NCBI GenBank assembly: GCA_964532425.1
Contig: CAZHIA010000006.1
Span: forward strand, 1,343 to 65,342
DNA: 64,000 bases
Direction of reading: 5' to 3'
Source: an uncultured Candidatus Saccharibacteria bacterium
GTDB taxonomy: Bacteria; Patescibacteriota; Doudnabacteria; UBA920
Positions 2,845 to 61,945 of this stretch are shown in pieces. Under the pieces are notes generated by a model, which saw only the letters and a list, made by a program, of their open reading frames with translations, made no database searches and was not told where the DNA came from. The first letter of the stretch is position 1. Each line of letters opens with the position of its first letter. Made by a program: the position numbers and the translations under genes.

Positions 2845-3123
2845 ACACGTCCTTTCAATTAAATAAAGATAGCAGCCAGGTTCATCTATTCAATTCCGTA
2901 TCTGCTACTACTTTGACTTCTAAAACTTTAGTTTCTTAAACCGGGAATGCACCTTTGATGATATAATTATATCACACGAGAATTCCGCACTAATAAAGCC
3001 GGAAGAATGAATGGTGCGGCCGACTGTTCGCCCGAGTGTGGCCAAAGCCGCTGCACAGCGAACCGCTCTTATGCAGGAGTATTAATAGTATACCATAATT
3101 AGCACTCGTGTCAACAGACTGCT

Positions 3124-3260
3124 AATAGTAATCTCTAATATAACGAATATAACGAATACAGCGCAAAATATGCGAATGCTATTGGCCGCTCAATAAACCA
3201 AGGGCGGAGTGCAGTATTTGTATATTTGTGCTTGATTCGTATATTAGAGATTACTATATT
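3124..3260. repeat. Copy 1 of a MITE-like element of about 140 bp with terminal inverted repeats AATAGTAATCTCTAATAT / ATATTAGAGATTACTATAT
   Basis: Aligns at about 75 percent identity to 57072-57198. Shared core ACGAATACAGCGCAAA-TAT-CGAAT...ATTGGCCGCTCAA. Element ends about 20 nt before the recX ATG. Confidence 0.6.
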
Positions 3261-3280
3261 AAGATTACGCTTTATCATAT

Positions 3281-3808
3281 ATGAGATCCCGTTGGAAACC
3301 CGCCCAAAAAACTAAGGAACCTGATAACGTAGAGAAGGCATATGATTATGCCGTGTTTTTGTTGTCGCTGCGATTAAGGACTATTGGCGAAGTGCTTTCG
3401 AAAATGCAGAAGCGTGGGTATACCGAATCGGTCATTGGGCAGGTAATAGAGCGCCTGAAGGACCAGCGATATCTGGATGACCGGAGGTATGCGGAAATTT
3501 TCTTGGAGAATCTGAAAGCGTACAAGAATTTCGGATATTATGGTATCAAAAAAAAATTCATGGAGAAGAAGCTTCCGCCTGCTTTAATCGAGACGGTACT
3601 GGAAGAAGGTCTGTCGTTTGAAGACGAAAGAAAAATTGCCGAACGTCTGTTGCGACGCGAAGGATACGCTGCTCCCAAGTCCGTGGATGATTCGGAAATA
3701 CACTACCGGACCTTTGACGAGAATGCCGGAAAGGAAAAACAAAAATTGGCCCAGCGGCTAAAAGCACGGGGCTTCCGGGGCGAGGTTATAAGCAGGTTAA
3801 TTTTTTAG
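3281..3808 (+). CDS. recX: RecX-like regulatory protein
   Basis: 175 aa, helical repeats, motif YLDDRRYAEIF typical of RecX. Assignment from motif resemblance only. Confidence 0.5.
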   Translation: MRSRWKPAQKTKEPDNVEKAYDYAVFLLSLRLRTIGEVLSKMQKRGYTESVIGQVIERLKDQRYLDDRRYAEIFLENLKAYKNFGYYGIKKKFMEKKLPPALIETVLEEGLSFEDERKIAERLLRREGYAAPKSVDDSEIHYRTFDENAGKEKQKLAQRLKARGFRGEVISRLIF

Positions 3809-3824
3809 TATACGATCGAAATGG

Positions 3825-3854
3825 AAGCCGCCCGCAGATTGCGAGCGGCTTTTC
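3825..3854. terminator. Hairpin plus T-tract between convergent recX and phosphatase genes
   Basis: AAGCCGC-CCGCAGATTGCGA-GCGGCTTTTC. Confidence 0.4.
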
Positions 3855-3859
3855 GTGAG

Positions 3860-4567
3860 CTACAAGTAAAGAATCTCGTTGTACCGAATCAGCTTCATTT
3901 GACCGAGTGACCGGTCAAACCGGTATTCGGCCACGGAACAATTGGCCGGATTGTTCGAACCCATGCAGTCGAGCATCTGCCGTTCGCCCCAGTTCTCGAG
4001 CTCGGCCAGAATGCTGATGCGCGAACCCCAATGGTCGATGGCTAGGACCTTTTTGTTACTCCAGTTAGTTCGGAGTTTTTGCAACCATTTCGCACATCGC
4101 TTGCGGACATCGAGCAAATTTTCTTTTCCTCTCGGGGCGATAAGGACTTCTCCCAGAATGGCGTACCCAGTCTCGAATTCGGGGTAGAGTAGTCCCACCT
4201 CATGGTCCAGCAGCAGGGGGAGCATGCCCCAATCGCGCTCGTCCAATAATTCCGTGGTGAGTACCGGAATCTTGCGACGCTGGTCTTCCGGGTACGTAGA
4301 GAGAATTACCTCGAGCGTCTTTCGGTTTCTGAGGCAGGTCGATTGATAAGCGCAGTCGAACGTCCCGTACTCGGTCCTGATCTTTTCCCCGGTTTTTTTG
4401 GCCTGCAGCCAGCCTTCATCGCAGAGAGGTATGTCGCGATCAGCCATGCCAGACAGCGGTGCGCGCTTTTTTTCATCCGAAAAGAATAAACCTTCCTTAT
4501 AGAGCTGGATCAGGGATTTTCCGTGGCGTACCAGTACCAAAAGCTCCGGCCAGCCTGTAGCGGTCAT
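3860..4567 (-). CDS. Histidine phosphatase superfamily protein (phosphoglycerate mutase-like)
   Basis: N-terminal LVLVRHGKS (RHG catalytic motif). Start chosen at internal ATG 4567 preceded by AGGAGG RBS; ORF track start 4585. Confidence 0.65.
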   Translation of the reverse strand: MTATGWPELLVLVRHGKSLIQLYKEGLFFSDEKKRAPLSGMADRDIPLCDEGWLQAKKTGEKIRTEYGTFDCAYQSTCLRNRKTLEVILSTYPEDQRRKIPVLTTELLDERDWGMLPLLLDHEVGLLYPEFETGYAILGEVLIAPRGKENLLDVRKRCAKWLQKLRTNWSNKKVLAIDHWGSRISILAELENWGERQMLDCMGSNNPANCSVAEYRFDRSLGQMKLIRYNEILYL

Positions 4568-4628: not shown

Positions 4629-4958
4629 TTACGCCGCTTTTTTCAAGGTATCTGTATTCTCTTGCTCATCGTTCAAAGGTGGAACTTCCGCCGGAGGCAT
4701 GGTTTTGAGTTTTCCAGGTATCTGCATGCCAAGTTTTTGGCGGTACACATCAGCCATTTTTTTGAGCGTTCCCAATTCACGGTCCACTTTTGCCAGTTCT
4801 TTCAAACTGTCGGGTGTGGCAGACTCGAGGAGATCCTTTCGCACGGTTTCGTAGTATTGGATATCTTTCAAGGTATCCTCGAGTTTGATTTTCGGATGGA
4901 TTTCCAGACCGGTTCCATACTCCGGCCTGCCGAATGCGGCAGGATTGGTTTCGTCCAT
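4629..4958 (-). CDS. Hypothetical protein
   Basis: 109-aa ORF filling gap between flanking minus-strand genes; no recognised motif. Confidence 0.35.
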   Translation of the reverse strand: MDETNPAAFGRPEYGTGLEIHPKIKLEDTLKDIQYYETVRKDLLESATPDSLKELAKVDRELGTLKKMADVYRQKLGMQIPGKLKTMPPAEVPPLNDEQENTDTLKKAA

Positions 4959-7185: not shown

Positions 7186-7541
7186 AGGTGTTTGTGATTT
7201 CCCTTAATATTACAACAAACTGCCTTTATTATAACACTATTTAACCTGAATCAAATAACCTCGGTTCTTACCTCTGTGTAGTTTGCCCATTTATGGGTAT
7301 GGTAAGCCTTGGCCGATAAATCGGCGCACTGCACGGGAGCCAGAAATTGATTAATGAATTGGAGTTGTTTGATTCAGGTCTGTAAATTCGCAAAATGTGT
7401 TAAAATATGGTACAATTTTGTTGAAAAGTTTAAAGTTCTAACTGAGGAAACAAAAACATCCACGAATCACAAATGAACACAAATACTGCACATACCCGCA
7501 GCTAATTTGGGAGCATTTGCGCGATTCGTGATTTGTGGACA

Positions 7542-9899
7542 ATGTCATTCATCGACCAACTCAAGCAGGACGTAAACCGGTATTTGGACCGCGTGCAGGT
7601 AAAGAAACTTGCGCACACGGTGGCTTTAATAGCGCGCGAGCGGGAGGACTTGAAGACCTGGACCGATAAGGAATTACAGCTTTCCACGATTGCGCTCAAA
7701 GAAGATATCGGCAAAGGCAGGCCGCTCGATGAACTGATTATTCCGGCCTTTGCCGTGGTGAATGAGGCGGCGCGGCGGTTGCTGCATAAGTATCCGTATG
7801 ATGTGCAAATTTTGGCCGGACTAGTCATTCATTCGGGCAAGGTTGCGGAAATGAAGGCTGGTGAGGGAAAGACGTTGACCGAGACCATGCCGGTATATTT
7901 AAACGCGCTTGAGGGCCGCGGGGTGCATGTCATTACGACCAATGATTACCTGGCAGAACGCGATGCCAAAGAAATGGGGCAATTGTATAAATTCCTCGGC
8001 CTCTCCAGCGGGTATGTAACCTCGGAAATGAAAAATGATGAGCGCCGGAAGGCATATGCCGCAGACATCACCTATGTGACCAACCAGGAAGTTGGTTTTG
8101 ACTTTTTGCGCGACAATCTCGTTTACAGCCGCAAGGAACGGGTGCTGCGGCCAAAAGACCCGCTCTATTTTGGTATTGTCGACGAAATAGACAGCATACT
8201 AATTGATGAATCGCGTACGCCGCTCATTATTGCCGAACCGGTTGCGGAAGAACGGCAGTTCTACAATTTATTTACCAAGATCGCCAACAAGCTGGAAGAG
8301 GAGAAGGATTATACGGTCGACTACAAGAATAAGACTTTGGCCCTGACGAATGACGGTTTGGACGAGGTTGAACGCATGCTTGGGACGCCCATGTTCTCCA
8401 AAGAGAATCCAATGTATGTCTTTTATTTGGACGTCTGCCTGAAAGCCAGAGTGTTGTTTGAGAAGGATCGTGATTACATCGTAACCAAAGACGGTGTTGA
8501 GATTGTAGACGAGTTCACTGGCCGCGTGCTTCCCGGGCGGCGGTTTACAGATGGCGTGCACCAGGCTATTGAAGCCAAGGAAAAAGTCAAAGTTAAGGAG
8601 GCGGATCGCACGCAGGCTGCCATTACGTTCCAGAATTTTTTCCCCATGTATAAAAAATTGTCCGGCATGAGCGGGACGGTCATGGGTGCGCGCGATGAGT
8701 TCAGCCAGGTATACAAACTGGAAGTCGTACAAATTCCGACCAACCGGCCCATGGCTCGTAATGATCATAATGACCTGTTCTTTAAGACCAAGAAGGGTAA
8801 GTTTTTAGGCTTAATAAAAAAAGTTCGGCAAATTCAAGGCCGTGGCCAGCCATTGCTTATTGGCGCGCGCAACGTAGAGACTGCTCACGAAGTTGCCCGC
8901 CTGCTCGACGGACAGAATTTGCCATACCAATTGCTGACCGCCCAGGATAACCGCGCTGAAGCCCAAAAGATCATACAGGCCGGGCAGGAAAATATGATTA
9001 CCATCGCTACTAACATGGCCGGTCGCGGAACTGATATTGTCCTCGGGGAAGGCGTGCCGCAGCGCGGCGGCTTGTTTGTGTTCGGGACGGAACGCCACGA
9101 ATCGCGCCGTATCGATGACCAGCTGGTTGGCCGGGCAGGCAGGCAGGGGGATCCGGGTGAATCTCAATTCCTGATTTCCATGGAAGATGAGATTATGCAG
9201 CTGTTCGGCAGCGAGCGCATTATCGATACCATGGAGCAGTACGATATTCCCGAGGATGAGTATATCTCCGGTCCATCGCTTGACCGGGCGTTTCGCAAGG
9301 CGCAGGAATTCGTAGAGAGCAAAAATTACGATAGCCGGGTCTACCTTTATAAATACGACCGGGTGGTCAATTATCAGCGTTCCCAGCTCTATCATTTGCG
9401 CGAGCGGCTACTGGAAAACGAACCGGAGTTCACAGAGTTCACCAGGCAGGCGATCCGCAATTCGGTCGCTACAGCATTCATGCTGGGTGATCCGGAGGCG
9501 ATTTGCAAGGAGTTGCAGGACGTGTTCTATATCGACATTGATCCCAAGGAAATTAAGCAGGCCCTGCTTGGCGGTGATGCCAAAAGCCAGCAGCAGCTGG
9601 AAGAAAAATTCACTAATTTCCTGACCCAGGCGGCTGGAAAGCTTAAGGGTATACCCGAGGTTCACGCCGCGAGCCAGCAGCTTGTTTTGGAAGTTATTGA
9701 CTCGAACTGGAGCACGCATTTGGAACTTATGGATGTGCTCAAAGAAGAGGCAAACCTGTTTTCCTACGCTTCCGAGGATCCGCTGATAGATTTCATCAAG
9801 GACAGTACGACCCTCTATCAGCACATGTGTGATACGATCAGCAGGCAGTTCCTGAAATATCTTTTCCTGCACATTACGCAGGTGGGGCTGCTTAAATAG
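7542..9899 (+). CDS. secA: Preprotein translocase ATPase SecA (short form)
   Basis: GEGKTLTETMPVYLNALEGRGVHVITTNDYLAERDAKEMGQLYKFLGLS matches the SecA DEAD-motor signature. Start at ATG 7542 (ORF track TTG 7533). Confidence 0.9.
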   Translation: MSFIDQLKQDVNRYLDRVQVKKLAHTVALIAREREDLKTWTDKELQLSTIALKEDIGKGRPLDELIIPAFAVVNEAARRLLHKYPYDVQILAGLVIHSGKVAEMKAGEGKTLTETMPVYLNALEGRGVHVITTNDYLAERDAKEMGQLYKFLGLSSGYVTSEMKNDERRKAYAADITYVTNQEVGFDFLRDNLVYSRKERVLRPKDPLYFGIVDEIDSILIDESRTPLIIAEPVAEERQFYNLFTKIANKLEEEKDYTVDYKNKTLALTNDGLDEVERMLGTPMFSKENPMYVFYLDVCLKARVLFEKDRDYIVTKDGVEIVDEFTGRVLPGRRFTDGVHQAIEAKEKVKVKEADRTQAAITFQNFFPMYKKLSGMSGTVMGARDEFSQVYKLEVVQIPTNRPMARNDHNDLFFKTKKGKFLGLIKKVRQIQGRGQPLLIGARNVETAHEVARLLDGQNLPYQLLTAQDNRAEAQKIIQAGQENMITIATNMAGRGTDIVLGEGVPQRGGLFVFGTERHESRRIDDQLVGRAGRQGDPGESQFLISMEDEIMQLFGSERIIDTMEQYDIPEDEYISGPSLDRAFRKAQEFVESKNYDSRVYLYKYDRVVNYQRSQLYHLRERLLENEPEFTEFTRQAIRNSVATAFMLGDPEAICKELQDVFYIDIDPKEIKQALLGGDAKSQQQLEEKFTNFLTQAAGKLKGIPEVHAASQQLVLEVIDSNWSTHLELMDVLKEEANLFSYASEDPLIDFIKDSTTLYQHMCDTISRQFLKYLFLHITQVGLLK

Positions 9900-10023
9900 A
9901 AAATAGAAAAATTAGGTGATCAGAGGAGGTTCCCAAAATCTTTTTATTTTTCTATTTTTCTATATTTTTATTGTATTTGCCTTGGTCTTTGAAAGAATCC
10001 CGTAATTTGCTATACTATCCCAT

Positions 10024-10305: not shown

Positions 10306-10398
10306 AAGCTTTCAGCTGTCAGCTTACAGCGTATAGGTAAATCAGATTTATATTGTGAACTGGTATTCCTATAAGCTGACTGCTATAAGCTAGAAGCT
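10306..10398. repeat. AGCTTATAGGAATA-family palindromic element (copy between gatC and gatA)
   Basis: Contains GGTATTCCTATAAGCTGA identical to 55924-55940 plus AAGCTTTCAGCTGTCAGCTT local palindrome. Confidence 0.45.
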
Positions 10399-18212: not shown

Positions 18213-18241
18213 TTGATAATTAACAGCTTATAGCCTATGAT
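18213..18241 (+). promoter_or_regulatory. Candidate sigma70 promoter of island gene B
   Basis: TTGATA (18213-18218), 17-nt spacer, TATGAT (18236-18241). Confidence 0.5.
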
Positions 18242-18266
18242 AGGAGGAAATCTTCCAGGAGGAATT

Positions 18267-19481
18267 ATGCGAGAATCGCAGGGGAAAGCCGTAGCGAGGG
18301 CGTACTTTTACCAGAGTTTTCTGCCTTCGTGCCTGACCGCTTCGCAGCTGCAACACGGCAATTTTCTCCTGCTCTTGGGAGAACAACCGCGCGAGCTGCC
18401 GTATCTGCAGGAACTGCGCGTGCCGATGAATCAGATCTGGTCGGTGGAAAACCAGCACGCGATATTCTTGAAGCAGCTTCAATTCCGTGAACAGGGGCAT
18501 TTGCCGATCTCTCTCTACTACGGGGACATGGCTGAGTATGTGCAGTACCTTCTCCACGAAAATAAAGAGTTCCTAGTTCTCGGCTTGGATGTTGAAGGCA
18601 GTTTCTTAAACCAGCTTGATCCGGCCATGACTTCGGTCATGCTCTTCTGCTGGAGGGCTCCGCAGTCCGTGGTGGCCACCTATTCCAGCGTGGGTCGTGA
18701 CCGCTTCATGGTTTGGGAAGGGTTGAAATCCCTGGCGCTGTTTCTGGCCATTGCGCCAAAACAGACAGCCGAATTTTTGGCGGTCTTAAGCCTGCGGTAC
18801 GAGCGGGCTGGCTTCACCGAGCCGGTGAGTATGGTCTTAAGAGACTTGTTTTGGATCAGAAGCCACTTGGAGCATACGCTTATGGCTTCCGTCGTGGTTG
18901 GTGCCGTACCGGGCAGCTTTTACCGTGAGTGCGCGCAATTACAGGAGAGTCTGTGGCAAGCGGTGAAGAAACAGCGCCGCTTTCCGCTGTCCATGGGTTT
19001 TCTCCAGGCGTGCGTCAAATCATGGCTGAAAGATAATCGTATCGCATTCGGCAACCACTTTAACAAAAACCGCAGCTTAGGGCTCTCTTGGGATACGCTG
19101 GCCCACGTGGTATACAATGCCGAGCATCCCTGGTCGCAGCTTTGCTACTTTGCCAAGTTCCGTAATGACGGCAATTTGATCTCCTGCAAGGTATGGCTGC
19201 TCCAAGTGCTCGAATTGTTTATGCGTCAGCCGCTTCTCTACATTGCCCGTTCCGGCAAAACCTACGAGCTGGACGGTCGCGTGCGCGACCTCTCGGAGCT
19301 GGCATCAGTAGCCTTGCTGAAAGGCAATAATCGAACCGATCGCAAAGGCGACCGGGAGATATACCGGCTGTTCAAACCGCGCCAGCTGGAAGCACGAACG
19401 TTGGTGCCGCATGTGCGCGGCATCACGCAGACCATTCTTGCTATTCGCAAGAGCAACGGGTATCATGGCAATAGCATGTAG
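18267..19481 (+). CDS. Hypothetical protein (island gene B)
   Basis: About 404 aa from ATG 18267 preceded by CAGGAGGAAT RBS (track ORF starts 18237); no recognised domain. Confidence 0.5.
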   Translation: MRESQGKAVARAYFYQSFLPSCLTASQLQHGNFLLLLGEQPRELPYLQELRVPMNQIWSVENQHAIFLKQLQFREQGHLPISLYYGDMAEYVQYLLHENKEFLVLGLDVEGSFLNQLDPAMTSVMLFCWRAPQSVVATYSSVGRDRFMVWEGLKSLALFLAIAPKQTAEFLAVLSLRYERAGFTEPVSMVLRDLFWIRSHLEHTLMASVVVGAVPGSFYRECAQLQESLWQAVKKQRRFPLSMGFLQACVKSWLKDNRIAFGNHFNKNRSLGLSWDTLAHVVYNAEHPWSQLCYFAKFRNDGNLISCKVWLLQVLELFMRQPLLYIARSGKTYELDGRVRDLSELASVALLKGNNRTDRKGDREIYRLFKPRQLEARTLVPHVRGITQTILAIRKSNGYHGNSM

Positions 19482-19509
19482 TGCGCCAACACCAGGAGGC
19501 AACAATATC

Positions 19510-19752
19510 ATGGCTCATACCAAACTACGCAAGAACCATGCAGATAATGCTCCAGTTGCACCGAAAGGGACTCCGTACCTGGACGGTACCGGGAACCTGA
19601 CGCAGTGGGGTAAAAAGCGAATCAAGTTTGTCGGCGCGAAATGCGTCAACGTCAACCAGCTCATAGCCAAACTGCCGCCGTACGTGGCAGAACTGGTAGA
19701 CCGCCAGACGCTGATCGCCTTGCTGGCCATCTCGCACCGGCCGTCATCGTAA
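19510..19752 (+). CDS. Small hypothetical protein (island gene C)
   Basis: 80 aa from ATG 19510 with AGGAGG RBS 10 nt upstream; MAHTKLRKNHADNAPVAPKGTPYLDGTGNLTQWGKKRIKFVGAKCVNV. Confidence 0.4.
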   Translation: MAHTKLRKNHADNAPVAPKGTPYLDGTGNLTQWGKKRIKFVGAKCVNVNQLIAKLPPYVAELVDRQTLIALLAISHRPSS

Positions 19753-19799
19753 GTGGCTGTCACAGCCATTCTTAGCTCACCTTCGGGTGGGCTTTTTTT
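19752..19799 (+). terminator. Tandem hairpins plus T7 tract after gene C
   Basis: TGGCTGTCACAGCCA and AGCTCACCTTCGGGTGGGCT followed by TTTTTTT. Confidence 0.55.
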
Positions 19800-19800
19800 C

Positions 19801-19867
19801 TTGACAATTGCCCGCTGATTTATTATGATTTACCGATATCTTATAAGGCATTTCGCTGTCATAAGAT
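19801..19867 (+). promoter_or_regulatory. Near-consensus sigma70 promoter plus operator-like palindrome for the gene D-E pair
   Basis: TTGACA (19801-19806), 17-nt spacer, TATGAT (19824-19829); downstream IR ATCTTAT-N16-ATAAGAT (19838-19867) before RBS GAAGGAGGGG. Confidence 0.6.
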
Positions 19868-19897
19868 AGGCATCTTAACAGTTTAGAAGGAGGGGAA

Positions 19898-21100
19898 ATG
19901 ACTGACTTACCCAAAAAACGGTCAGCGGCGCTGGAGGCTTCCCGCCTGCTCAATCAATTGACCGACACCGCAATAAAATTCGCTTGTGAGCAAGGAGCTC
20001 GCAAAAATTCGACCATGGAAATTGGGACTGTGCTGGCTCAGCATCTCAACGAACGGGAGAAAATCCAGGTGCGGCCCCATACGCTTGTCGAATTGCTCGA
20101 AGGCGCAAGGTTCCGGGGAGGGTCAAGTTTCATTATCCCATTTGGGAAAATGCTTGGCTGCCAGGACATTGCTGCCCGGCTGAGCGCGCTCTCGGAGCTG
20201 CTCGGTGACAGAATGGCAGGCGTCGCCACGTTCGGCGAAACGGAGATTGATTTTTTATTCGATCTTCTGGATGAGCGGCAGAAGCTTTCTTCGCAGATGG
20301 ACACCGCGGCGTTTGCCGGGTATTTTCATCCCTACCAACAAACCGTTGTCAACCTGTGCAATTATTCCAGGAGCGCCCTGACAAAGATGGGCGAGCATGG
20401 TTCAGAAGCGCGGCATATACGGAAGGTAATGGAAGAAAAACCATGGGACAAGGGCCAGCAACCGGATGCGCTGAATCAACCGAATGCGGCAGATCCGGAG
20501 TTGGTAGAACTACTGAATGACCTGCAAGGCAAAATGGGCAGGACTCAACTCAGTGCTGCGCTTGGAATCCACCGGGAAACCCTGGTCGCCCGCCTGGAAG
20601 GGAAGCGGGGAACCAAGATTAGCGACGAAGAGCTTATGAGAAAAGTCAAGGCTGTCTCAGCTGGGCTTGAAGGTGGTGAGAGACCGTCGCCGGCAGCAAC
20701 GCCGGTCCCGGTTTTCAGAACCCGCCAGGAAGACGTACAGGCACGAGTCGTTTTGCCTGCGGAAATTTCCGCAGCGAACGACAGTGGTCCCCGGTTCGTC
20801 CTTACCCCGCAAAATTTCCAGGAGCACCAGCGGAATCTGTGCATTGAATTCATCGGGCTTGCCAAGCGCCAGATGGAACTGGCGCGGCGCGCGCTCGACG
20901 AAGTTACCCAGCACCAGGATCCGGCCGTGCGCGCGTACATCCGCAGTCAAATGATGGGCGAGGTGCATGAAATGCATTTTGCCTTAGAACGTTTCAGCGC
21001 CGAACACCCGAACATTCTGCTCGAAACGCTCGAGGCGGAGCGCCAAGGATTCGAGTTGCATCGCAAACAGCAGGAACCAGCAGGAACCAGGAGAAAATAA
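19898..21100 (+). CDS. Hypothetical protein with internal helix-turn-helix (island gene D), translationally coupled to the GHKL gene
   Basis: 400 aa; strong RBS; HTH-like segment MGRTQLSAALGIHRETLVARLEG; stop TAA overlaps next ATG (TAATG); 10-bp tandem duplication CAGGAACCAG at 3' end. Confidence 0.6.
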   Translation: MTDLPKKRSAALEASRLLNQLTDTAIKFACEQGARKNSTMEIGTVLAQHLNEREKIQVRPHTLVELLEGARFRGGSSFIIPFGKMLGCQDIAARLSALSELLGDRMAGVATFGETEIDFLFDLLDERQKLSSQMDTAAFAGYFHPYQQTVVNLCNYSRSALTKMGEHGSEARHIRKVMEEKPWDKGQQPDALNQPNAADPELVELLNDLQGKMGRTQLSAALGIHRETLVARLEGKRGTKISDEELMRKVKAVSAGLEGGERPSPAATPVPVFRTRQEDVQARVVLPAEISAANDSGPRFVLTPQNFQEHQRNLCIEFIGLAKRQMELARRALDEVTQHQDPAVRAYIRSQMMGEVHEMHFALERFSAEHPNILLETLEAERQGFELHRKQQEPAGTRRK

Positions 21101-23151
21101 TGAAAAAGGTATTGAAAGTGATGAAAAGCGCGGCAGAGTACGTGACCATCAAGTGCGGACGCGGTTTTTTGAGCCGTCAGTTCGCTGGCACTACGTATTT
21201 GGCCGCTGCCACGGAATTGATCAAGAATCCCCGCGACTGGGGCGCAACCGCCATTTGGATCTGGGACAATATCCGTCCCAATCTGGTGCGGTTTGCGGAT
21301 AATGGCGTAGGAATGAACCCGGAAAACCAAACCGCGTTCTGCTCACTCAACGTTACCACGGCGACCAAGGTTTGGCAGGCTGGTCTCTACGATACGGGCA
21401 GCAAGAAGTTCCTGTTCGGTTTCTCCGAACGGGTCGATGTGCGCACCGTGTTCCAGGACGATCCGGATTACGTGAGCCAGTTCGCGCTAGTGACGGCGGA
21501 TTACGAAAACCAGGTCATGGGAAGCGCTCCGAATCAGATCCCGGTCACTCGCGTTCTAAAGACGCCGGAGACCTGGCCGTTCGATTTCCCGACCGGTACC
21601 GTCCTCGACTATACGTTGCGGGATCCCAAAAGCCGCGCCATTTTGCGCGGCAAGTCCCTGGCCGAAGCCATGAGCGCCCGATATCCGGATAAGTTCAAGG
21701 ACATTATCCAGATCAACGGCACGTTCATTCCAGGCAAGGGCGAGAACGCTAAGCTGTTCCATGTTGTGGAACAGCATCCGCAACTGGGACAGGTCTCCAT
21801 CGAGATCTACCAGGTTGCCAAAAAGCGGATTCGCGAAGAGATGCTCTTGCTGTCTGCCGGCGAGATTGGCGAAGTTCCGTTCTCGTCGTTCCTTTCCGGG
21901 CTCGGCGAACTGCAAGCTGACATCGATGACGTCTACGGCCTCGCTACCACAGCCGGCGTGATCCAGGTCCCGTATCTGAAGGAGTATATTAACGAGGACC
22001 GCAAGTCGCTCAACCCGCGCTTCATTGATGACAAGCGTACAATGCAGCTGTTGTTTCTGCTCAAGCGCTTTGCTCCGATCATTGAAAGCCGCTTGGGACT
22101 CCATCTCAAGCAGGATGAAGAACAGGCCGGCGGCCACCGCGTGGTCGACGAACTGATCACGCGGTGCAACAAGAAGTACAATCCCAAAGGCGACATTCCG
22201 CGGGATTTCCGCAAGCCTGATGATGTCGTACCTCCTCCTCCCGTCCGAGGCCCTGAAGAGGACGATGTCTTTGGCGGCACGGATGAGGACGAGCGCAAGG
22301 AAGGGGTGAAGATCGGCTGCCAGCGCGAGTATGAGGTTGGTGAACCGATCCAAATCCGTTTAGCGGTCTCCAAGAACCTGACGTTAGATCCGGCTAAGCT
22401 GAAGTGGCAAACGGACCATTCCCTGGCTAAGGATATTCGCAGTACCGACAAGGGGCTGGAAATGGTGGCAGCTCGCGAGGGCTACGCCAGGGTCAGCTTG
22501 GATGTGGTAGGCACGCCGTACAGCGCCAACTGCCACTATGTCGTGGTAGGGAAACGCAAGTTCAAACTGAGCTCGTCGCAGTCGGTTCTCAAAGTCGGCC
22601 AGTTCTTGAACATCATGACCATCAACTCTGACAAGCTGAAAGGCGAAGTTAAGTGGGAGATGGCCAAGGACAGCGTCGGCAAGCTGGAAGCTAATGGCAA
22701 GCGAGCCGTCTACTTTGCGACCCGCTGGGGCAAAGCCACGGTCTGGGCGTATGACAGCCTGAACCCAAAGGGTACCCGGGTGGCATGCGAGATCGACGTC
22801 ATCCGTCCTGATGACGAATATCTGACCATTCGGAATCACCATTTCCGCGTTCGGTTCACCGTGACCGAACAGGGAATGATGTACGAGCGCAAGCCGGTGG
22901 TCATTAAAGGGAGCTCGGCGGGGAAGGTGCATGACATCTTCTTCAATACCAAGCACCCGGCCTATGTGAAGGCCGATCAAACCGGTTCCTTGCAGGAATT
23001 TCTGCTCATGGAATTGGCGATCGAGTATGTCAGGTTCTGCAAGTTCGATCTGGAGCAGATCCATGTCGAAATGGCGAGCTTTGACGTCCCGGAAGCGTTC
23101 AGTGCAATCCAGAAGGAGGCTGATGTAATTTATCTCGAATTGAAAGAGTAA
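21100..23151 (+). CDS. GHKL/Bergerat-fold ATPase (MORC/Hsp90/MutL-like motifs) fused to two Big_2-like Ig domains (island gene E)
   Basis: 683 aa; N-box ELIKNPRDWGAT, G1 box FADNGVGMNPE, G2-like GLYDTGSKKFLFGF; two repeats of about 80 aa each matching the Big_2 pattern, ending ...GKATVWAYDSLNPKGTRVACEIDVI; no signal peptide. Confidence 0.65.
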   Translation: MKKVLKVMKSAAEYVTIKCGRGFLSRQFAGTTYLAAATELIKNPRDWGATAIWIWDNIRPNLVRFADNGVGMNPENQTAFCSLNVTTATKVWQAGLYDTGSKKFLFGFSERVDVRTVFQDDPDYVSQFALVTADYENQVMGSAPNQIPVTRVLKTPETWPFDFPTGTVLDYTLRDPKSRAILRGKSLAEAMSARYPDKFKDIIQINGTFIPGKGENAKLFHVVEQHPQLGQVSIEIYQVAKKRIREEMLLLSAGEIGEVPFSSFLSGLGELQADIDDVYGLATTAGVIQVPYLKEYINEDRKSLNPRFIDDKRTMQLLFLLKRFAPIIESRLGLHLKQDEEQAGGHRVVDELITRCNKKYNPKGDIPRDFRKPDDVVPPPPVRGPEEDDVFGGTDEDERKEGVKIGCQREYEVGEPIQIRLAVSKNLTLDPAKLKWQTDHSLAKDIRSTDKGLEMVAAREGYARVSLDVVGTPYSANCHYVVVGKRKFKLSSSQSVLKVGQFLNIMTINSDKLKGEVKWEMAKDSVGKLEANGKRAVYFATRWGKATVWAYDSLNPKGTRVACEIDVIRPDDEYLTIRNHHFRVRFTVTEQGMMYERKPVVIKGSSAGKVHDIFFNTKHPAYVKADQTGSLQEFLLMELAIEYVRFCKFDLEQIHVEMASFDVPEAFSAIQKEADVIYLELKE

Positions 23152-23163
23152 GTCGCAGTATGC

Positions 23164-23197
23164 CGCCTGGCTCCGCAAACGGAGCCAGGCGTTTTTT
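23164..23197 (+). terminator. Intrinsic terminator after gene E
   Basis: CGCCTGGCTCCG-CAAA-CGGAGCCAGGCG followed by TTTTTT. Confidence 0.75.
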
Positions 23198-23280
23198 ATT
23201 TTAGTGAGCTTACTGGCCGAATATCATGTTGATTGTAATTGCGGATTTTTTCCTATTCGGCAACAGACCTTAAACGCAAT

Positions 23281-23317
23281 AAAAAAGCCGCCCGCACAGA
23301 AAACGTGCGGGCGGCTG
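23281..23317 (-). terminator. Intrinsic terminator of convergent gene F (minus strand)
   Basis: AAAAAA-GCCGCCCGCAC-AGAAAA-CGTGCGGGCGGC; T-run on minus strand. Confidence 0.7.
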
Positions 23318-23322
23318 AATGA

Positions 23323-25170
23323 TTATACCTGAGCAGAAGCCTGACGGACCTTCCAACGCTGCTCCGTGAGCACGCGTTTTGATTCGTATGCCCTGCGGAT
23401 ATTGTCGATGGTCAGATCATGCTTGACCATGAGGTTGTACGCGTGCTGGAATTGGCCGGAGGTGAGCTTGATGGTGTTTCTTCTGGCTGACCGTTGATTG
23501 ACATCGTAGATCAGCCAGGTTTTTGTACTGAGTTCCCACCGCTTCTTGATCACCGGCGCCTTTTCGCCTTTGAGGTTCTCGGACTGCGTCGGGTCAGCCA
23601 CCATAGTTCGTAATACGGGAGCGAACGTACCGGCTTCATCCTTCGAACACTTTTTCAGGAGCTGTACCGTTTCGAGCAGCGAGTTGACACTGCTGCTGGC
23701 AATGAACTTGTCATTGCACGTGATGACGTATCCCGCACAGATGATCAGCTCGTAGAGTTCTTGCGCCCGTGCCTCGTCATACGACTCAGGAACGGGCAGG
23801 GGAATTTCGCTGCTTTCGTCCTCCAAATCCGCAAGCGGCGGTTGTGCTGATTGCGGACCGGAAGGCTCGGCAGCAAGAGGTGGCGTGAGCGGTTCCGGTT
23901 CCCGGAAGGTTTCAGATTCTCCGGGTTCCGATTGCGGTGCTGGTTCGGCCGGTTCGTGGGTCGGTTCGGGCTGGGGTTCTGCTTCCAAAATTTCTGGCAG
24001 CATTCCCAAATAGCGTTCCGTTGCCTGCACGACATCCGCCACATGCTCGGTCAATTGAGGTGGCGTGTAGAATAAGCGTTCGATGCTCGCGACGAGCAGT
24101 TCCAGTTCGTTGCCCAGGCGCTGGGGGCGCCAGTCTTCCGAAGCTGCGACAAGTTCGGCAAATTCATACTCATTCGTATCGATGTACTTGCCGGGCAGGA
24201 ACAGGTGAGGCGGCTTTAACACGCCGTTCTTGGCAAATTGCTGGTACCAGTCGAAGGTGCCGATCTGGGTGTGCCAATGCACCATAACCTGCTTCAGAAC
24301 GGTTGCATGCTGGTCGAGATCGTCGCGGATGTCGGTTTGGCTTTGGGTAAACAGCTGCTGAGCGTCTTTCTGCGCTTGCGCGATGGCACCCAAATGCCGC
24401 CGTGCCTCTTCCACTTGCTGTTTGAATCCCGGATCGGGCGGTGCGCCACCCAGTACGCAATACAACTCCTCGAGGAAACAGTTGTCTTTGAGTTTGAGGA
24501 ATTGGATGGCGTCGGCTACGCATTGGTTTTCCATGGTCAACATGGATTCCCAGTTCGCTTTAGCCGCTTCCGCGCGCTCTTTAAGCTCGGTGAGCTGCTG
24601 GCGCAGGGAAACGATCTCGTCGTGGGTAATGGCGATCCACTTGGCACAGTCGGCCCATGGTTTATAGATGACCAGCGCGATGCTGTCGGAATTCTCCAGC
24701 GCCTGCGTGGCGTTGTCATAGGCTACGGTCATGCCAGATGCGACTTGGTCGGTTTTGCAGAGCTTGTCGGCAATGGTGCTGATGCCACTCATGAAGCTGT
24801 ACAGTTTTTCCTTTAGCAAGGAAATTGCTTCCAGCTCATCGCTGTTCGCGATGGCCTGCAGGACCTGCTGAAGATTCAGAATGCCCATGAGCTCGGCTTT
24901 GACTAACTGGCCCGCTTCTCCGCACGTGTCGAGGATACCGTTGCACTGCTGCTCAAAATCATACAGCAGGTCAGTGAGTCCGTGAGTATCCATCGGGCGT
25001 TCGAAAAAGGTTTCTTGCCCGTTCACCCGCATGTATTTAAAGCTTTGTCCGCGGGCCGCTACGCGCTGAAACAACTGGAGCGTGCCGCGATCTAGGCGGC
25101 TGGCATCTACCTGCACATAATCGTACCCCTTCCCGTCGGGCGTGGGATACCTCAGGTAATAATTTTCCAT
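23323..25170 (-). CDS. Large hypothetical protein with acidic Pro/Glu-rich linker (island gene F)
   Basis: 615 aa; strong RBS AGGAGGGGG; low-complexity segment EPQPEPTHEPAEPAPQSEPGESETFREPEPLTPPLAAEP; no recognised domain. Confidence 0.55.
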   Translation of the reverse strand: MENYYLRYPTPDGKGYDYVQVDASRLDRGTLQLFQRVAARGQSFKYMRVNGQETFFERPMDTHGLTDLLYDFEQQCNGILDTCGEAGQLVKAELMGILNLQQVLQAIANSDELEAISLLKEKLYSFMSGISTIADKLCKTDQVASGMTVAYDNATQALENSDSIALVIYKPWADCAKWIAITHDEIVSLRQQLTELKERAEAAKANWESMLTMENQCVADAIQFLKLKDNCFLEELYCVLGGAPPDPGFKQQVEEARRHLGAIAQAQKDAQQLFTQSQTDIRDDLDQHATVLKQVMVHWHTQIGTFDWYQQFAKNGVLKPPHLFLPGKYIDTNEYEFAELVAASEDWRPQRLGNELELLVASIERLFYTPPQLTEHVADVVQATERYLGMLPEILEAEPQPEPTHEPAEPAPQSEPGESETFREPEPLTPPLAAEPSGPQSAQPPLADLEDESSEIPLPVPESYDEARAQELYELIICAGYVITCNDKFIASSSVNSLLETVQLLKKCSKDEAGTFAPVLRTMVADPTQSENLKGEKAPVIKKRWELSTKTWLIYDVNQRSARRNTIKLTSGQFQHAYNLMVKHDLTIDNIRRAYESKRVLTEQRWKVRQASAQV

Positions 25171-34135: not shown

Positions 34136-34300
34136 GAGGCAGGTATGAGGCAGGCAGGCTGGATAAAATTTGTTTTGCCTTCCGCCTTGCTTGCCTACCG
34201 GTAGGCAAGCCCACCCAGTACTTGCGTTTTAACACCCTTCAGTGATGGCAAGGCGTGGGGCAAAAAATTTTACCAACCTGCCTGCCTCACCGGGACACGA
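34136..34300 (+). ncRNA. Candidate structured RNA region between proS and mreB (unclassified)
   Basis: 12-nt long-range complement GAGGCAGGCAGG (34147-34158) / CCTGCCTGCCTC (34277-34288) enclosing inner palindrome CTTGCCTACCGGTAGGCAAG (34190-34209) and GC-rich segments; no ORF. Confidence 0.3.
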
Positions 34301-35418: not shown

Positions 35419-35492
35419 AACATTTAACATGTGACATTTGACCTTTGACATGTATCTCAGTTAAATGTCAATTGTCAAATGTCAAAGGTTGT
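35419..35492. repeat. TGACATTTGACC-family hairpin element (copy R4) inside the mreB-mreC operon
   Basis: Arms AACATTTAACATGTGACATTTGACCTTTGACATGT / TAAATGTCAATTGTCAAATGTCAAAGGTTGTT; ends 7 nt before mreC ATG. Confidence 0.65.
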
Positions 35493-35498
35493 TCTTAC

Positions 35499-36302
35499 AT
35501 GCGTTTCATTTATAGCCGTGTCTTTGGAATCTTCTTTGCCTGTCTCGTGGCCCTCGCAATATTGGTTTTTGCCGAAACCAAAGGCTGGCTGTTTCCAGTC
35601 CGCGAGGTGCTGCTGTCAGCTCCGCGCCCAGTTGCTGCTGCGGTCCGCGGCGTGGCCCGGCCGGTGAGCAATTTTTTCGCCACTATTTACCAGCTCAGGA
35701 ATATCACCCGCGAGAATGTTCAGCTTACTTCGCGCGTATCCGCGCTTGAGCAGGACCTTGTCCAGTTGGACCAGTATAAACGGGAAAACGACGCGCTCAA
35801 AGCCGAGCTTGGCTTTGCAGCCGCAGCCCGCCAATCATACCAAAGCTGCACAGTGCTGGCCTACAATCCTTTGAATCTGACCGATACGCTCCAATTAAAT
35901 TGCGGGAGCGAAGCGGGTATCCAGCAGGGGGCCGCGGTGGTCAGCCAGGGGTATCTTGTCGGGAAAGTCATGTATGTCACGCGCGGCTCCAGTACGGTGC
36001 TTTTGATCACCAGTTCCAAATTCCAGGCGGATGCGCGCGTCAGCAAGACCAATGCAGCGGGCATTATCGGCGGCTCCTTTAGTACCGGTATCATTCTGGA
36101 CCGGCTGTCGCAGAATGACGACCTGCAAAAAGGCTGGGTAGTTGTCACGGCGGGTATTAATTCCAACATTCCGAAAAACATTTTGGTAGGGCAGGTTGGG
36201 GATGTTATTTCCCACCCGAACGACCTGTTCAAAAAAGCCACCGTCTTGAGTCCTATTGACTACGAAAATATCAAGTTCGTGTTTGTGGCGAAAGGCCAAT
36301 AA
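35499..36302 (+). CDS. mreC: Rod shape-determining protein MreC
   Basis: N-terminal TM helix, coiled-coil then beta-rich domain; position after mreB; start ATG 35499 (track 35445). Confidence 0.7.
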   Translation: MRFIYSRVFGIFFACLVALAILVFAETKGWLFPVREVLLSAPRPVAAAVRGVARPVSNFFATIYQLRNITRENVQLTSRVSALEQDLVQLDQYKRENDALKAELGFAAAARQSYQSCTVLAYNPLNLTDTLQLNCGSEAGIQQGAAVVSQGYLVGKVMYVTRGSSTVLLITSSKFQADARVSKTNAAGIIGGSFSTGIILDRLSQNDDLQKGWVVVTAGINSNIPKNILVGQVGDVISHPNDLFKKATVLSPIDYENIKFVFVAKGQ

Positions 36303-36410
36303 TATAATTGACAAAATTTAAAAAATTGACATAATTGACAAAAATAAAATGCAGTCTGGTTTCCTAATTTTGTCAATTTTGTCAATTATGTCAATTTTGT
36401 CAATTAGTCT
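36303..36410. repeat. AT-rich palindromic TTGACAAAA/TTTTGTCAA element, left copy flanking mreD
   Basis: AAATTTAAAAAATTGACATAATTGACAAAA - ATAAAATGCAGTCTGGTTTCCTAATTTT - GTCAATTTTGTCAATTATGTCAATTTTGTCAATT. Confidence 0.55.
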
Positions 36411-36944
36411 ATGAAATACCTTCTCTACGCCCTCACCATCATCGTCCTCGCCGGTCTCAACATCGGTCTGTTCCCATTTATTCGTATTATGGGGGCCGCA
36501 CCGAGTTTGTTATTGGTTTTTTTGACTATCTCAGCGCTCGAGAAGGACTCCCTGGACTTTATTTTTATCGCGTTTTGTGGGGGGCTTATTGCGGATGCTT
36601 ATAGTGGTGCATACTTCGGTGCGTATACGCTGGCCTTTCTGTTGCTTTCCCTTCTGCTGTACCTGACCGTGCAGCGCTTGTTCGCCGTAAACATGAACTG
36701 GAAATACTTGGTAGTAACCATGGCCATTGTGACTATATTTGTCAATTGTGCAGTCTGGTTATACTCCGTGTTGGTCTATAAGGCAGGCTTGGCCCCGCTA
36801 GCCATAGAATGGCATCTGGTTCGCAAGCTGATACTTCCTGAATCGGCCTATAACATTTTGATGCTCTACCCCATCTACATTCTTTCCGTATTTTTGCGCA
36901 ACACCATTGCCGATCTGGCCATGAAGAAACACTACCTTAGGTAA
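36411..36944 (+). CDS. mreD: Putative rod shape-determining protein MreD (polytopic membrane protein)
   Basis: 177 aa, 5-6 TM helices, located between mreC and PBP2 gene; assignment by position and topology. Confidence 0.5.
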   Translation: MKYLLYALTIIVLAGLNIGLFPFIRIMGAAPSLLLVFLTISALEKDSLDFIFIAFCGGLIADAYSGAYFGAYTLAFLLLSLLLYLTVQRLFAVNMNWKYLVVTMAIVTIFVNCAVWLYSVLVYKAGLAPLAIEWHLVRKLILPESAYNILMLYPIYILSVFLRNTIADLAMKKHYLR

Positions 36945-36948
36945 TTGA

Positions 36949-37048
36949 GCAAAATTTAAAAAATTGACAAAATTGACAAAATTAGGAAACCAGACTGCAT
37001 TTTATTTTTGTCAATTATGTCAATTATGTCATTTTTGTCAATTCTTCT
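36949..37048. repeat. Same AT-rich palindromic element, right copy flanking mreD with inverted core
   Basis: Core AGGAAACCAGACTGCATTTTAT is the reverse complement of the core in 36303-36410 while the TTGACAAAA arms are in the same orientation. Confidence 0.55.
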
Positions 37049-49272: not shown

Positions 49273-49354
49273 GTGACAGACATTTGACCTGTGACATTTG
49301 ACATTTGACCAATTGCAGACGGTCAAAGGTCAAATGTTAAATGTTAAATGTTTT
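49273..49354. repeat. TGACATTTGACC-family hairpin element (copy R6)
   Basis: GTGACAGACATTTGACCTGTGACATTTGACATTTGACC-AATTGCAGAC-GGTCAAAGGTCAAATGTTAAATGTTAAATGTTTT; loop resembles R3 loop. Confidence 0.65.
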
Positions 49355-56883: not shown

Positions 56884-56968
56884 CTAGTTGCCAGCTTATA
56901 GGAACACCAGTTTTGAGTTCCAACACGGCTTCTCCTGTAAGCTAAAAGCTGACAGCTACAAGCTTTTT
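56884..56968. repeat. Family D-like element after ftsX
   Basis: CCAGCTTATAGGAACACC ... CTCCTGTAAGCTAAAAGCTGACAGCTACAAGCTTTTT. Confidence 0.4.
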
Positions 56969-57071
56969 ATCTCTTGCGTGATTTTTAAAATCGTATATAC
57001 TGAAAAAGAGCCACTTTGAGGCAATCCTGAAAGCGGCAGCCAAGGACTCTCGCAGGGGAGTTTTTTTGTTG

Positions 57072-57198
57072 AATAGTAATCTCGAATGGCACGAATACAG
57101 CGCAAATATACGAATATACATTGGCCGCTCAAATTCTGAAGAATGGTGTGTAGTATTCGCATATTTGCGCTTTATTAGTATATTAGAGATTACTCTAT
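57072..57198. repeat. Copy 2 of the MITE-like TIR element, forming the entire 5' leader of rplI
   Basis: AATAGTAATCTCGAAT...ACGAATACAGCGCAAATATACGAAT...ATTGGCCGCTCAA...ATATTTGCGC...TATATTAGAGATTACTCTAT; ends 1 nt before rplI ATG. Confidence 0.6.
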
Positions 57199-57648
57199 AT
57201 GAAGGTAATATTTCTCAAGGACCAGCCCGGCGGGGGGAGACGCGGGGAGATCAAGGAAGTGAACGAAGGGTATGCCAAGAATTTTTTGATTCCCAAGGGG
57301 TTTGCCCAGGTTGCGACAACGGACATTCAGGCTAAGGTGGCCAAGGAACAGAAGGAAGCTGAAGCCAAGCGCACAAAGGAAGTATCTCGCGCTCAAGAGT
57401 TGAAGGCAGAGCTGGAACGTCGGACCTTTACCGTTTCCATGAAGGTTGGGGACAAGGGGCAGGTATTTTCCGGGGTGCATGACCGCGATATTGCCGAAGC
57501 GATCAATAGGAAGCTACCGGCTACGGTTGAGCGACATCAGATCGAATTAAGCCGTCCTATTAAGGATCTTGGTCTCCATAAAGTGAGTATCAAGCTTATG
57601 CCCGGCATTAAGGCAGTTGTTGCCGTCACTGTCGAGCCTCAAACATAA
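57199..57648 (+). CDS. rplI: 50S ribosomal protein L9
   Basis: [36 protein letters not shown] canonical L9. Confidence 0.85.
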
Positions 57649-61465: not shown

Positions 61466-61496
61466 CCGCATACTCGCATGTGGTTGTATTCAATGA

Positions 61497-61530
61497 TAAA
61501 AAACACCCCGACTCATCGAGGTGTTTTTTG
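61497..61530. terminator. Bidirectional terminator (serves minus-strand rpmA)
   Basis: AAAAA-ACACC-CCGACTCATCGA-GGTGT-TTTTTG. Confidence 0.6.
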
Positions 61531-61537
61531 TGAGGTC

Positions 61538-61831
61538 TTATTTCTTGGCCGTGGTCTTCGGGCTAACGCTGACGATGCGCGTGCGCTTGAGATTGCCGTG
61601 GAATTTAGCGACTTTCTTGTTCTGGAATTTCACAACTCCGTCTGCTGCGGCATAGAGCGTGGAATCTCCCCCGACCCGTACGTTTTTGCCGGCAGCATAC
61701 TTGGTGCCGTGCTGGCGTACAATGACTTCGCCCTGTTTGACGGTCTGGTTGCCGAACACTTTGACCCCGAGGCGCTTACTGATGCTATCGCGGCCGTATT
61801 GTGTTGAGCCACCGGCTTTCTTATGTGCCAT
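61538..61831 (-). CDS. rpmA: 50S ribosomal protein L27
   Basis: [16 protein letters not shown] canonical L27. Confidence 0.9.
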
Positions 61832-61838
61832 ACAATTA

Positions 61839-61945
61839 TAATCCTAATAATCCGAATTAGTATCCGAATGCCCCGAATGATCCCGTTTTTGATTCGGGTA
61901 ATTCGGATTGCAAGTATTCGGATAATTCGGATTATGCTTACTGCT
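61839..61945. repeat. ATTCGG/CCGAAT-word imperfect palindrome (family P copy)
   Basis: ATAATCCTAATAATCCGAATTAGTATCCGAATGCCCCGAATGATCCCGTTTTTGATTCGGGTAATTCGGATTGCAAGTATTCGGATAATTCGGATTAT. Confidence 0.5.

Follow-up and report, generated by a model that had tools for sequence, protein, structure and literature searches.

We analysed a 64,000-nucleotide stretch of DNA (hereafter, the window) from contig CAZHIA010000006.1 of an uncultured Candidatus Saccharibacteria bacterium, placed by GTDB in the Doudnabacteria (Patescibacteriota). Our subject is a short palindromic element present in two diverged copies 54 kb apart: copy A upstream of recX, and copy B upstream of rplI, the gene for ribosomal protein L9. 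The features of both sites, in window coordinates, are as follows.

3087..3127, minus strand: clpB promoter (TTGACA-16-TATACT, TG-extended) with CIRCE-like operator, left neighbour of copy A
3124..3260, plus strand: copy A, palindromic element (hairpin core 3125-3257, 49 bp; covariance model 140 bits)
3125..3141, unstranded: left terminal inverted repeat of copy A, ATAGTAATCTCTAATAT, perfect complement of 3241-3257
3141..3158, plus strand: 9-nt tandem duplication in copy A, AACGAATAT / AACGAATAC, in the 5' arm only
3181..3193 in copy A and 57120..57132 in copy B, plus strand: apical 13-mer ATTGGCCGCTCAA, identical in both
3241..3257, unstranded: right terminal inverted repeat of copy A, ATATTAGAGATTACTAT
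3255..3268, plus strand: degenerate tandem copy of the right terminus of copy A, TATATTAAGATTAC (compare TATATTAGAGATTAC at 3240-3254)
3281..3808, plus strand: recX (Pfam), starting 20-25 nt past copy A, without a Shine-Dalgarno motif
56974..57067, plus strand: promoter-leader-terminator unit, left neighbour of copy B, kept in the related loci L017, L018 and L019
57072..57198, plus strand: copy B, palindromic element (hairpin core 57075-57194, 47 bp; covariance model 131 bits)
57199..57648, plus strand: rplI (Pfam), starting 0-4 nt past copy B, without a Shine-Dalgarno motif

The element and its two sites

The first-pass annotation had described two full-length copies of one element with inverted termini of about 17 bp and a conserved core, leading into recX (3281-3808) and rplI (57199-57648), and this description stood up. 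Pfam agreed with both genes. With copy A as the BLASTN query against the window, copy B was matched with E = 2.8e-20. The copies are homologous along their full length: a gap-aware pairwise alignment gave 105 identical columns out of 123 aligned (85%), plus 18 gap columns, and MAFFT a mean column identity of 80%. The terminal inverted repeat is 17 bp and perfect in copy A (3125-3141 / 3241-3257), and in copy B it has 9 perfect bp followed by a G/A mismatch. The termini can be written as the pattern AGTAATCNCNAA...TTNGNGATTACT. Within them, the 15-mer ATATTAGAGATTACT is exact at 3127-3141 (minus), 3241-3255 (plus) and 57180-57194 (plus), and the fourth arm, 57075-57089 (minus), carries it with 3 mismatches; allowing up to 3 mismatches, we observed 7 matches where 1.19 were expected. 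The core claimed for both copies is the 13-mer of the loop, found in copies A and B only. Also as claimed, the repeated element is short (120-137 nt) with terminal inverted repeats at both ends. It contains no open reading frame (ORF), being too short for any gene.

Each copy folds as a single long hairpin, at -58 kcal/mol (z -9.3) for copy A and -44.9 kcal/mol (z -6.1) for copy B, and no shuffle equalled either value. The arms are assembled from 7-9-nt units prone to slip, and the duplications of copy A are examples of this. Its 9-nt duplication, missing in copy B, stays unpaired as a bulge of 10 nt in the hairpin. The right terminus of copy A, 15 nt in length, is also duplicated in tandem (3240-3254 / 3255-3268), and the duplicated terminus lies unpaired between the hairpin and recX, which is why recX stands about 20 nt farther from the element than rplI does.

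The copies are no assembly artefact, because copy B is identical in contigs of two independently assembled samples, and separate contigs that break inside copy A still hold both of its termini. These are L020 and L021, which were assembled independently from short reads of the same sample and end within copy A (window 3173-3230). Such breaks indicate that long palindromes likely fragment the assemblies of genomes like this one. At copy B, a public contig (L001 8907-9113, equal to window 56956-57162) has a 68-aa minus-strand gene called across the element.

Copy A lies in the divergent spacer between clpB and recX. A CIRCE-like operator, TTAGCACTC-N9-GACTGCTAA, occupies 3101-3127 and overlaps the strong minus-strand clpB promoter at its -35 box; copy A begins where the operator ends. 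Copy B takes up the whole stretch from 4 nt past a canonical intrinsic terminator (57044-57067) to the ATG of rplI. The terminator closes a conserved unit made of a -35 box (56974-56979), a -10 box (56996-57001; TTGCGT-16-TATACT), GAAAAAGAGCC and a variable stretch. The unit is found in four genomes (window 56974-57067, L017 ~9905-9980, L018 ~9830-9915, L019 ~4690-4840) with the pattern TTGCGT/TTGCAC, 16-18 nt, TATACT/TATAAT, (G/A)AAAAGAGCC, a variable stretch, ACTCTC...GGGAG and a T-run. Nothing in Rfam matches this unit, which could be an attenuator or leader of rplI, or a small RNA.

This geometry bears on the earlier claim that the element must supply the promoter or leader of both genes. 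Its position within the promoter/leader region holds for rplI. The obligatory promoter does not, given the conserved unit upstream of copy B and promoter-like matches inside the element that are weak (9/12) and near the level of shuffles: 3 were found, and shuffles gave 1.8 +/- 1.3 and 0.7 +/- 0.9. Since a conserved promoter precedes rplI, read-through would make copy B a leader, and 'leader' is likelier than 'promoter'.

A promoter-donor role can still be formulated, in which the right arm (GTATATTAGAGATTACT) brings an outward-facing -10 box to the gene behind it. Correia elements of Neisseria can bring a promoter to a downstream gene in this way. A, B and one member from another contig (L008-1, described below) have a conserved TATATT in their right arm, which falls within weak sigma-70-like arrangements in copy B (TTCGCA-17-TATATT) and copy A (TTGATT-17-TATATT). 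Copy B follows an intrinsic terminator, copy A sits in a divergent region without another obvious recX promoter, and many window genes have -10-like boxes 10-16 nt before their ATG. However, the matches in A and B lie at non-homologous positions, TATATT is missing in other members of the family (L004 and the Saccharibacteria ones), the promoter upstream of rplI is already there in four genomes, and members inside the rpsD-rpoA-rplQ operon would need no new promoter. We consider this role decidedly improbable. A related candidate, leaderless transcription starting from the right arm, was rejected since -10-like hexamers are not consistently placed before hairpin-preceded genes. As for the boxes themselves, TATAAT-like ones 10-16 nt before ATG occur at several genes (e.g. 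10024, 40879, 52839, 63317) and suggest that leaders are very short or absent there.

Shared termini in other Patescibacteria

The pair A/B constitutes the AGTAATCTC family, one among a class of long AT-rich intergenic palindromes. RecX and L9 homologues point to Patescibacteria, and the closest relatives are just 68-73% identical in these proteins. In three other Patescibacteria lineages, the 12-17-bp termini (AGTAATCTCTAAT.../...ATTAGAGATTACT) enclose different interiors, at loci that include those before rpoA, rplQ and mraY. We scanned 185,579 species genomes for AGTAATCTC-N85-115-TTAGAGATTACT and obtained three fully palindromic matches against about 0.1 expected, all of them in Patescibacteria (L004, L005 and L007). 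Pattern matches on one strand in Bradyrhizobium, Hungatella and Oscillospiraceae (L003, L006, L009) had no interior hairpin and were discarded as chance, and a scan of viral contigs for the termini gave no match.

The L004 element measures 116 nt, overlaps the stop codon of a D-Ala-D-Ala carboxypeptidase gene and ends 12 nt before mraY. Beside its terminus (L004 6948-6968), AAGTAATT and the adjoining AAGTAATC are repeated in tandem, like the duplicated right terminus of copy A. The other two matches are of a Saccharibacteria type, to which a metagenome scan added three orthologues:

Saccharibacteria-type 134-nt element: L005 6063-6196, L007 117-250, L010 9820-9953, L011 1512-1645, L012 3829-3962

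This element has the same 12-nt termini and a 17-bp perfect closing stem around a branched interior with GCAA (GNRA) and UNCG loops. Its neighbours are a pilB-like ATPase gene on one side and ruvB on the other, terminators flank it on either side, and it has no Rfam match.

Two more members flank rpoA, at 2185-2297 and ~3226-3390 of L008, a contig labelled as an uncultured Gammaproteobacteria metagenome-assembled genome that may be mis-binned. Of the two, the AT-rich member lies between the stop of rpoA and the start of rplQ and has termini identical with those of A and B over 15-17 nt; the one between rpsD and rpoA has termini GAGTAATCGCTAATAT / ATATTCGAGATTACTC and a branched, GC-rich interior. 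L008-1 reaches up to ~165 nt. There are thus two copies in 8 kb of L008 and two in the 64-kb window. A third long palindrome of this contig (5286-5404) is unrelated. We rejected L008 as an orthologous ftsX-rplI locus, for its genes are rpoA and rplQ.

Across these sites, the copies take up the last few bases left between a signal upstream, be it operator, terminator or stop codon, and the start codon that follows; at five of the six site types, 4-25 nt separate the end of the element from a start codon. Identical termini with free interiors, in front of unrelated genes and in distant lineages, point to the terminal inverted repeats of a mobile family rather than to a vertically inherited regulator. 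Thus, our favoured reading, to which we give an even chance, is a short non-coding and non-autonomous palindromic repeat with 12-17-bp terminal inverted repeats, of the kind of miniature inverted-repeat transposable elements (MITEs), ERIC or Correia elements. The conserved termini would be the recognition sites of a trans-acting transposase or recombinase, which would copy the element into AT-rich spacers just upstream of start codons, and the arms would be complementary since the copies are young and not since pairing is selected. Because it fills the whole spacer, the element would be part of the downstream gene's transcript, as an RNA hairpin of about 50 bp in the 5' leader or between cistrons. 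Any effect on mRNA stability, processing or translation would be a by-product, tolerated or secondarily exploited. Most likely, the element lacks a dedicated function and is passively part of the 5' leader.

Several observations weigh against this reading. No consistent target-site duplication was found at the six insertion sites, where the flanks merely extend the stem by 1-3 bp. No transposase or autonomous partner was seen in the 8-20 kb visible per genome, and none of 34 scanned proteins had a transposase domain. The window has only two copies, and searching it with a covariance model of A, B and one of the L008 copies added none. The rest of the class resembles mirrored arrays of short tandem repeats more than classical MITEs, which makes a non-transpositional origin possible, and the steady placement 4-25 nt before start codons could reflect function instead of target preference. 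The Saccharibacteria-type element looks like a stand-alone small-RNA gene. Finally, the sense strand of copy A gives a fold 18 kcal/mol more stable than that of the antisense strand (-58 vs -40 kcal/mol), with 4 G·U against 0 A·C; this is what an RNA function would be expected to give, although it is not significant alone. The label MITE-like given by the first-pass annotation is thus only partly kept: terminal inverted repeats, small size, lack of an ORF and a patchy presence at orthologous sites agree with it, but no target-site duplication was visible, nor a transposase in the flanking DNA viewed.

Since the element is a long stable hairpin in intergenic DNA, we also considered a terminator or insulator hairpin, or a trans-acting guide or small-RNA unit such as a dispersed stem-loop tigRNA of TIGR-Tas systems. 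TIGR units form tandem arrays beside a Tas gene that encodes a Nop domain, and they contain two spacers of 8-12 nt between box C/D motifs (PMC12045711; bioRxiv 10.64898/2026.09.09.750476), and stem-loop TIGR arrays of the candidate phyla radiation (CPR) have palindromic flanks and variable interiors (bioRxiv 10.64898/2026.09.09.750476). The likeness lies in the CPR hosts and in palindromic flanks around a variable interior, and the terminators on both sides of the Saccharibacteria member would also fit. However, the copies described here are single, dispersed before housekeeping genes and almost fully paired; tandem arrays are missing, as are a CCA/UG box arrangement around two 8-12-nt spacers and a spacer pair flanked by box C/D, and none of the scanned window proteins had a Nop domain, so a TIGR-Tas array was rejected. 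An intrinsic terminator does not fit either: no T-run follows the stem and no terminator-like site was called at either copy, and a separate canonical terminator stands right before copy B, as GC-rich terminators do apart from the hairpins. Besides, copy A occupies a divergent promoter region and other hairpins lie inside operons. We regard this group of explanations as very improbable. An invertible promoter (inverton) was also discarded, for the A/B interior is itself palindromic and five Saccharibacteria assemblies have a single orientation.

Hairpins in the spacers of the window and its relatives

The recX/rplI pair belongs to a broader pattern. In a strict palindrome scan of the window, 25 palindromes reached a score of at least 14. 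The 8.85 kb of intergenic DNA contained them all, the 55 kb of coding DNA contained none, and shuffles of the intergenic sequence gave 0.05. About 20 of the 25 are long, AT-rich and 50-145 nt in size, and about one spacer in three of this compact genome is a long palindrome. A minimum free energy scan of the whole window and a loosely gapped palindrome scan were uninformative, as coding DNA and shuffles scored equally high. The repeat search returned many inverted and direct repeat families with units such as TTGACAT, ATTGACAAA, ATCCGAAT, AGCTTAT and AATTCC, and several palindrome families have 2-4 copies each in the window.

Many palindromes lie 0-7 nt (0-9 nt for those listed below) from both the upstream stop and the downstream start within operons. 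Each of the three spacers among mreB, mreC, mreD and PBP2 has a hairpin, and hairpins also fill the gatC-gatA and methyltransferase-rpmA spacers. Spacer-filling AT-rich palindromes at mreB-mreC-mreD-PBP2, gatC-gatA, a kinase gene and methyltransferase-rpmA have the following coordinates:

35419-35490
36305-36406
36943-37043
10307-10398
49278-49353
61838-61935

The gene mreD stands between two copies of one palindrome with a TTGTCAATT unit (36299-36399 and 36950-37050). Each copy measures 101 nt, the two show 90% complementarity, and the loop of either one is the reverse complement of the other's. Upstream of secA, in a divergent region, there is a further hairpin of ~140 nt (7244-7379; -56.9 kcal/mol on the plus strand vs -40.3 on the minus), and a GC-richer one, also of ~140 nt, lies upstream of mreB (34146-34289); both are of unrelated sequence. 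GC-rich terminators with T-runs exist apart from the palindromes, and where both precede a gene the usual order is terminator, palindrome and start codon; the exception is the palindrome after clpB, which comes before the terminator. Thus, the link to recX and rplI proposed in the first-pass annotation was not specific: the element is one family among ~20 long AT-rich palindromes per 64 kb that fill spacers generally.

Some other observations concern the genes of the window. The palindromes confuse gene calling, as at 61478-61807 (plus), where the longest ORF masks the real rpmA at 61538-61831 (minus). Four successive large ORFs (414, 400, 683 and 615 aa) at 18237-25170 have no Pfam match. A Shine-Dalgarno motif is recognisable in only ~14 of 64 genes.

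Relatives show how these positions change. In L013, L015 and L016, the clpB/recX arrangement is retained together with the CIRCE operator, and the interval from operator to recX ATG contains hairpins of CTACAGA, CGAATCTACGAAT and ATAAGCT units, respectively. Their CIRCE-like HrcA operators (TTAGCACTC-N9-GAGTGCTAA type; L013 ~3870-3900, L015 ~3850-3880, L016 ~1085-1115) are directly followed by the hairpin, a different one each time. At rplI, the gap from terminator to ATG measures 23 nt in L017, where it includes the Shine-Dalgarno motif GAGGA but no hairpin. In L018 it has an unrelated hairpin region of 88 nt, and in L019 a ~60-nt hairpin with only GCAAAT/ATTTGCGC in common with copy B. The family is missing from the orthologous recX/rplI spacers of these six relatives' loci, whose sites are too diverged for clean boundaries, and ~90 kb of DNA from these relatives is free of the motif GAGATTACT. 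On the other hand, L019, the closest relative, shares with the window the ATAATCCGAAT hairpin at its position before rpmA. In these comparisons, families last over short evolutionary distances and are replaced over longer ones, and what recurs at these positions is a hairpin, not this particular element. Relatives with other hairpins or none make it no conserved regulator of recX or rplI.

The recurrence of hairpins is one argument for a selected cis-acting RNA, in which the ~50-bp stem in leader or intercistronic RNA would be kept for its function: protection from exonucleases, a site for a double-strand RNase, or juxtaposition of an upstream stop or signal with the start for initiation without Shine-Dalgarno. 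In favour, most relatives have a hairpin at the same position despite another sequence, hairpins abut start codons and fill stop-to-start spacers of operons that need co-transcription, the genes behind them have no Shine-Dalgarno motif, and for copy A as well as for the hairpin at 7244-7379 the sense-strand fold is the more stable by ~17 kcal/mol. However, the class as a whole has no sense-strand wobble excess: 26 hairpins gave 35 G·T vs 31 A·C mismatches on the sense strand (p = 0.71) and 64 transversion mismatches. Stem columns of A and B differ at 9.8%, for which neutral decay of a perfect palindrome predicts ~9.5% broken pairs per copy; 13-18% were observed, so the loss of pairing is that expected under neutrality. 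Only one compensatory pair, with both sides changed, separates A from B. With two copies and low power, these figures give no evidence of preserved structure beyond a recent common origin.

Other signals also speak against it. L017 has no hairpin before rplI, and the Shine-Dalgarno depletion behind hairpins was not significant in a scripted test (1/13 vs 13/51, p = 0.16), the motif being absent from most genes anyway. Rfam gave no match at the gathering threshold in the window, both copies and the related loci, and only generic miRNA-hairpin noise for A and B at E <= 10; a tRNA/tmRNA scan found none. The alternative in the first-pass annotation, a conserved cis-regulatory RNA, is therefore not borne out by Rfam, by the neutral loss of pairing or by covariation, for which A and B yielded that single compensatory pair (two copies, low power). 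We see a selected RNA hairpin as unlikely, but as an explanation to be taken seriously.

A local origin would account for the structures without transposition. Slippage of 7-9-nt units, together with template switching or arm-to-arm conversion, would build the palindromes in place, ectopic gene conversion would make A and B alike, and palindromes would persist in a lineage without palindrome-cleaving repair. The arms are indeed arrays of short units, copy A has a tandem duplication in one arm, and termini are duplicated in both A and L004. Target-site duplications were not seen, families are replaced at fixed positions in relatives, and the L019 hairpin at rplI and copy B share only the inner GCAAAT/ATTTGCGC. 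Nevertheless, identical 12-17-bp termini around unrelated interiors, in lineages as far as Saccharibacteria and beside unrelated genes, are hard to obtain without copying a defined unit, and the 13-nt loop unique to A and B shows whole-unit copying. We find this origin rather improbable.

A bolder suggestion, in which we have little confidence, is that the AGTAATCTC stem marks Patescibacteria-wide hairpin modules proximal to start codons that replace spacers and Shine-Dalgarno leaders, belong to a wider system specific to the lineage and are served by a trans-acting factor recognising the conserved stem. If so, the base of the hairpin would join the upstream stop, terminator or operator to the next AUG, and it would set mRNA 5' ends or permit re-initiation without Shine-Dalgarno. 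This would be a new organisation of operon expression in reduced genomes, not selfish DNA.

Known palindromic repeats and biological meaning

Returning to the mobile palindromic repeat as our favoured reading, we compared it with known intergenic repeats by description. Correia elements (NEMIS/CREE) are ~100-155-bp units present in hundreds of copies, with terminal repeats of 26 bp and a target duplication of TA, and they are co-transcribed and can modulate the expression of the downstream gene. They resemble the element described here in lacking an ORF, in their terminal inverted repeats and long hairpin, and in their location beside or between genes. However, there is no sequence similarity, and here we find no target duplication, two copies per 64 kb, arms of 7-9-nt units and a Patescibacteria host.

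ERIC/IRU, RUP, BOX and RPE are enterobacterial or Gram-positive intergenic palindromic repeats whose RNA hairpin can affect mRNA stability. Their likeness is also close: imperfect palindromes of ~100-130 bp, restricted to transcribed intergenic regions and patchy at orthologous sites. Nevertheless, ERIC is one conserved sequence family, whereas here dozens of unrelated families share an architecture and the termini alone are conserved across lineages, with copies placed exactly between a stop or terminator and a start codon.

REP units are short palindromes with a 5' GTAG that come with a RAYT gene, and a REPIN forms a long hairpin whose ends are conserved and whose middle is freer to vary. 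Both are, like this element, intergenic, hairpin-forming, non-autonomous and without target-site duplication, but copy numbers are far lower here and no RAYT was seen in the DNA viewed. We rejected an assignment to REP/REPIN because the termini AGTAATCTCTAATAT are not self-complementary and there is no conserved GTAG-type motif. Leaders of ribosomal protein genes and other Rfam cis-RNAs share with copy B a structured sequence, capable of acting as RNA, right upstream of a ribosomal protein gene. They differ in that this element is unconserved at orthologous rplI loci and stands before functionally unrelated genes. Integron attC sites, DNA uptake sequences and retron RNAs were also rejected, as their defining motifs, arrays or neighbouring genes are missing.

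What is new with respect to known intergenic palindromic repeats is the combination of no target duplication, arms of short units and exact placement from stop or terminator to start. Our literature search found no description of MITEs or intergenic palindromes in Patescibacteria. If the mobile reading is true, this would be the first described palindromic family with terminal inverted repeats common to deep Patescibacteria (CPR) lineages. The wider pattern is more striking: long, fast-evolving palindromes in the spacers of essential operons (mreBCD-PBP2, gatCA, rpsD-rpoA-rplQ) of a reduced genome. For annotation, these palindromes yield spurious ORFs and break contigs. At the level of expression, they bear on how CPR operons are expressed where most genes have no Shine-Dalgarno motif. 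Finally, they raise the question of how long palindromes survive in these genomes.

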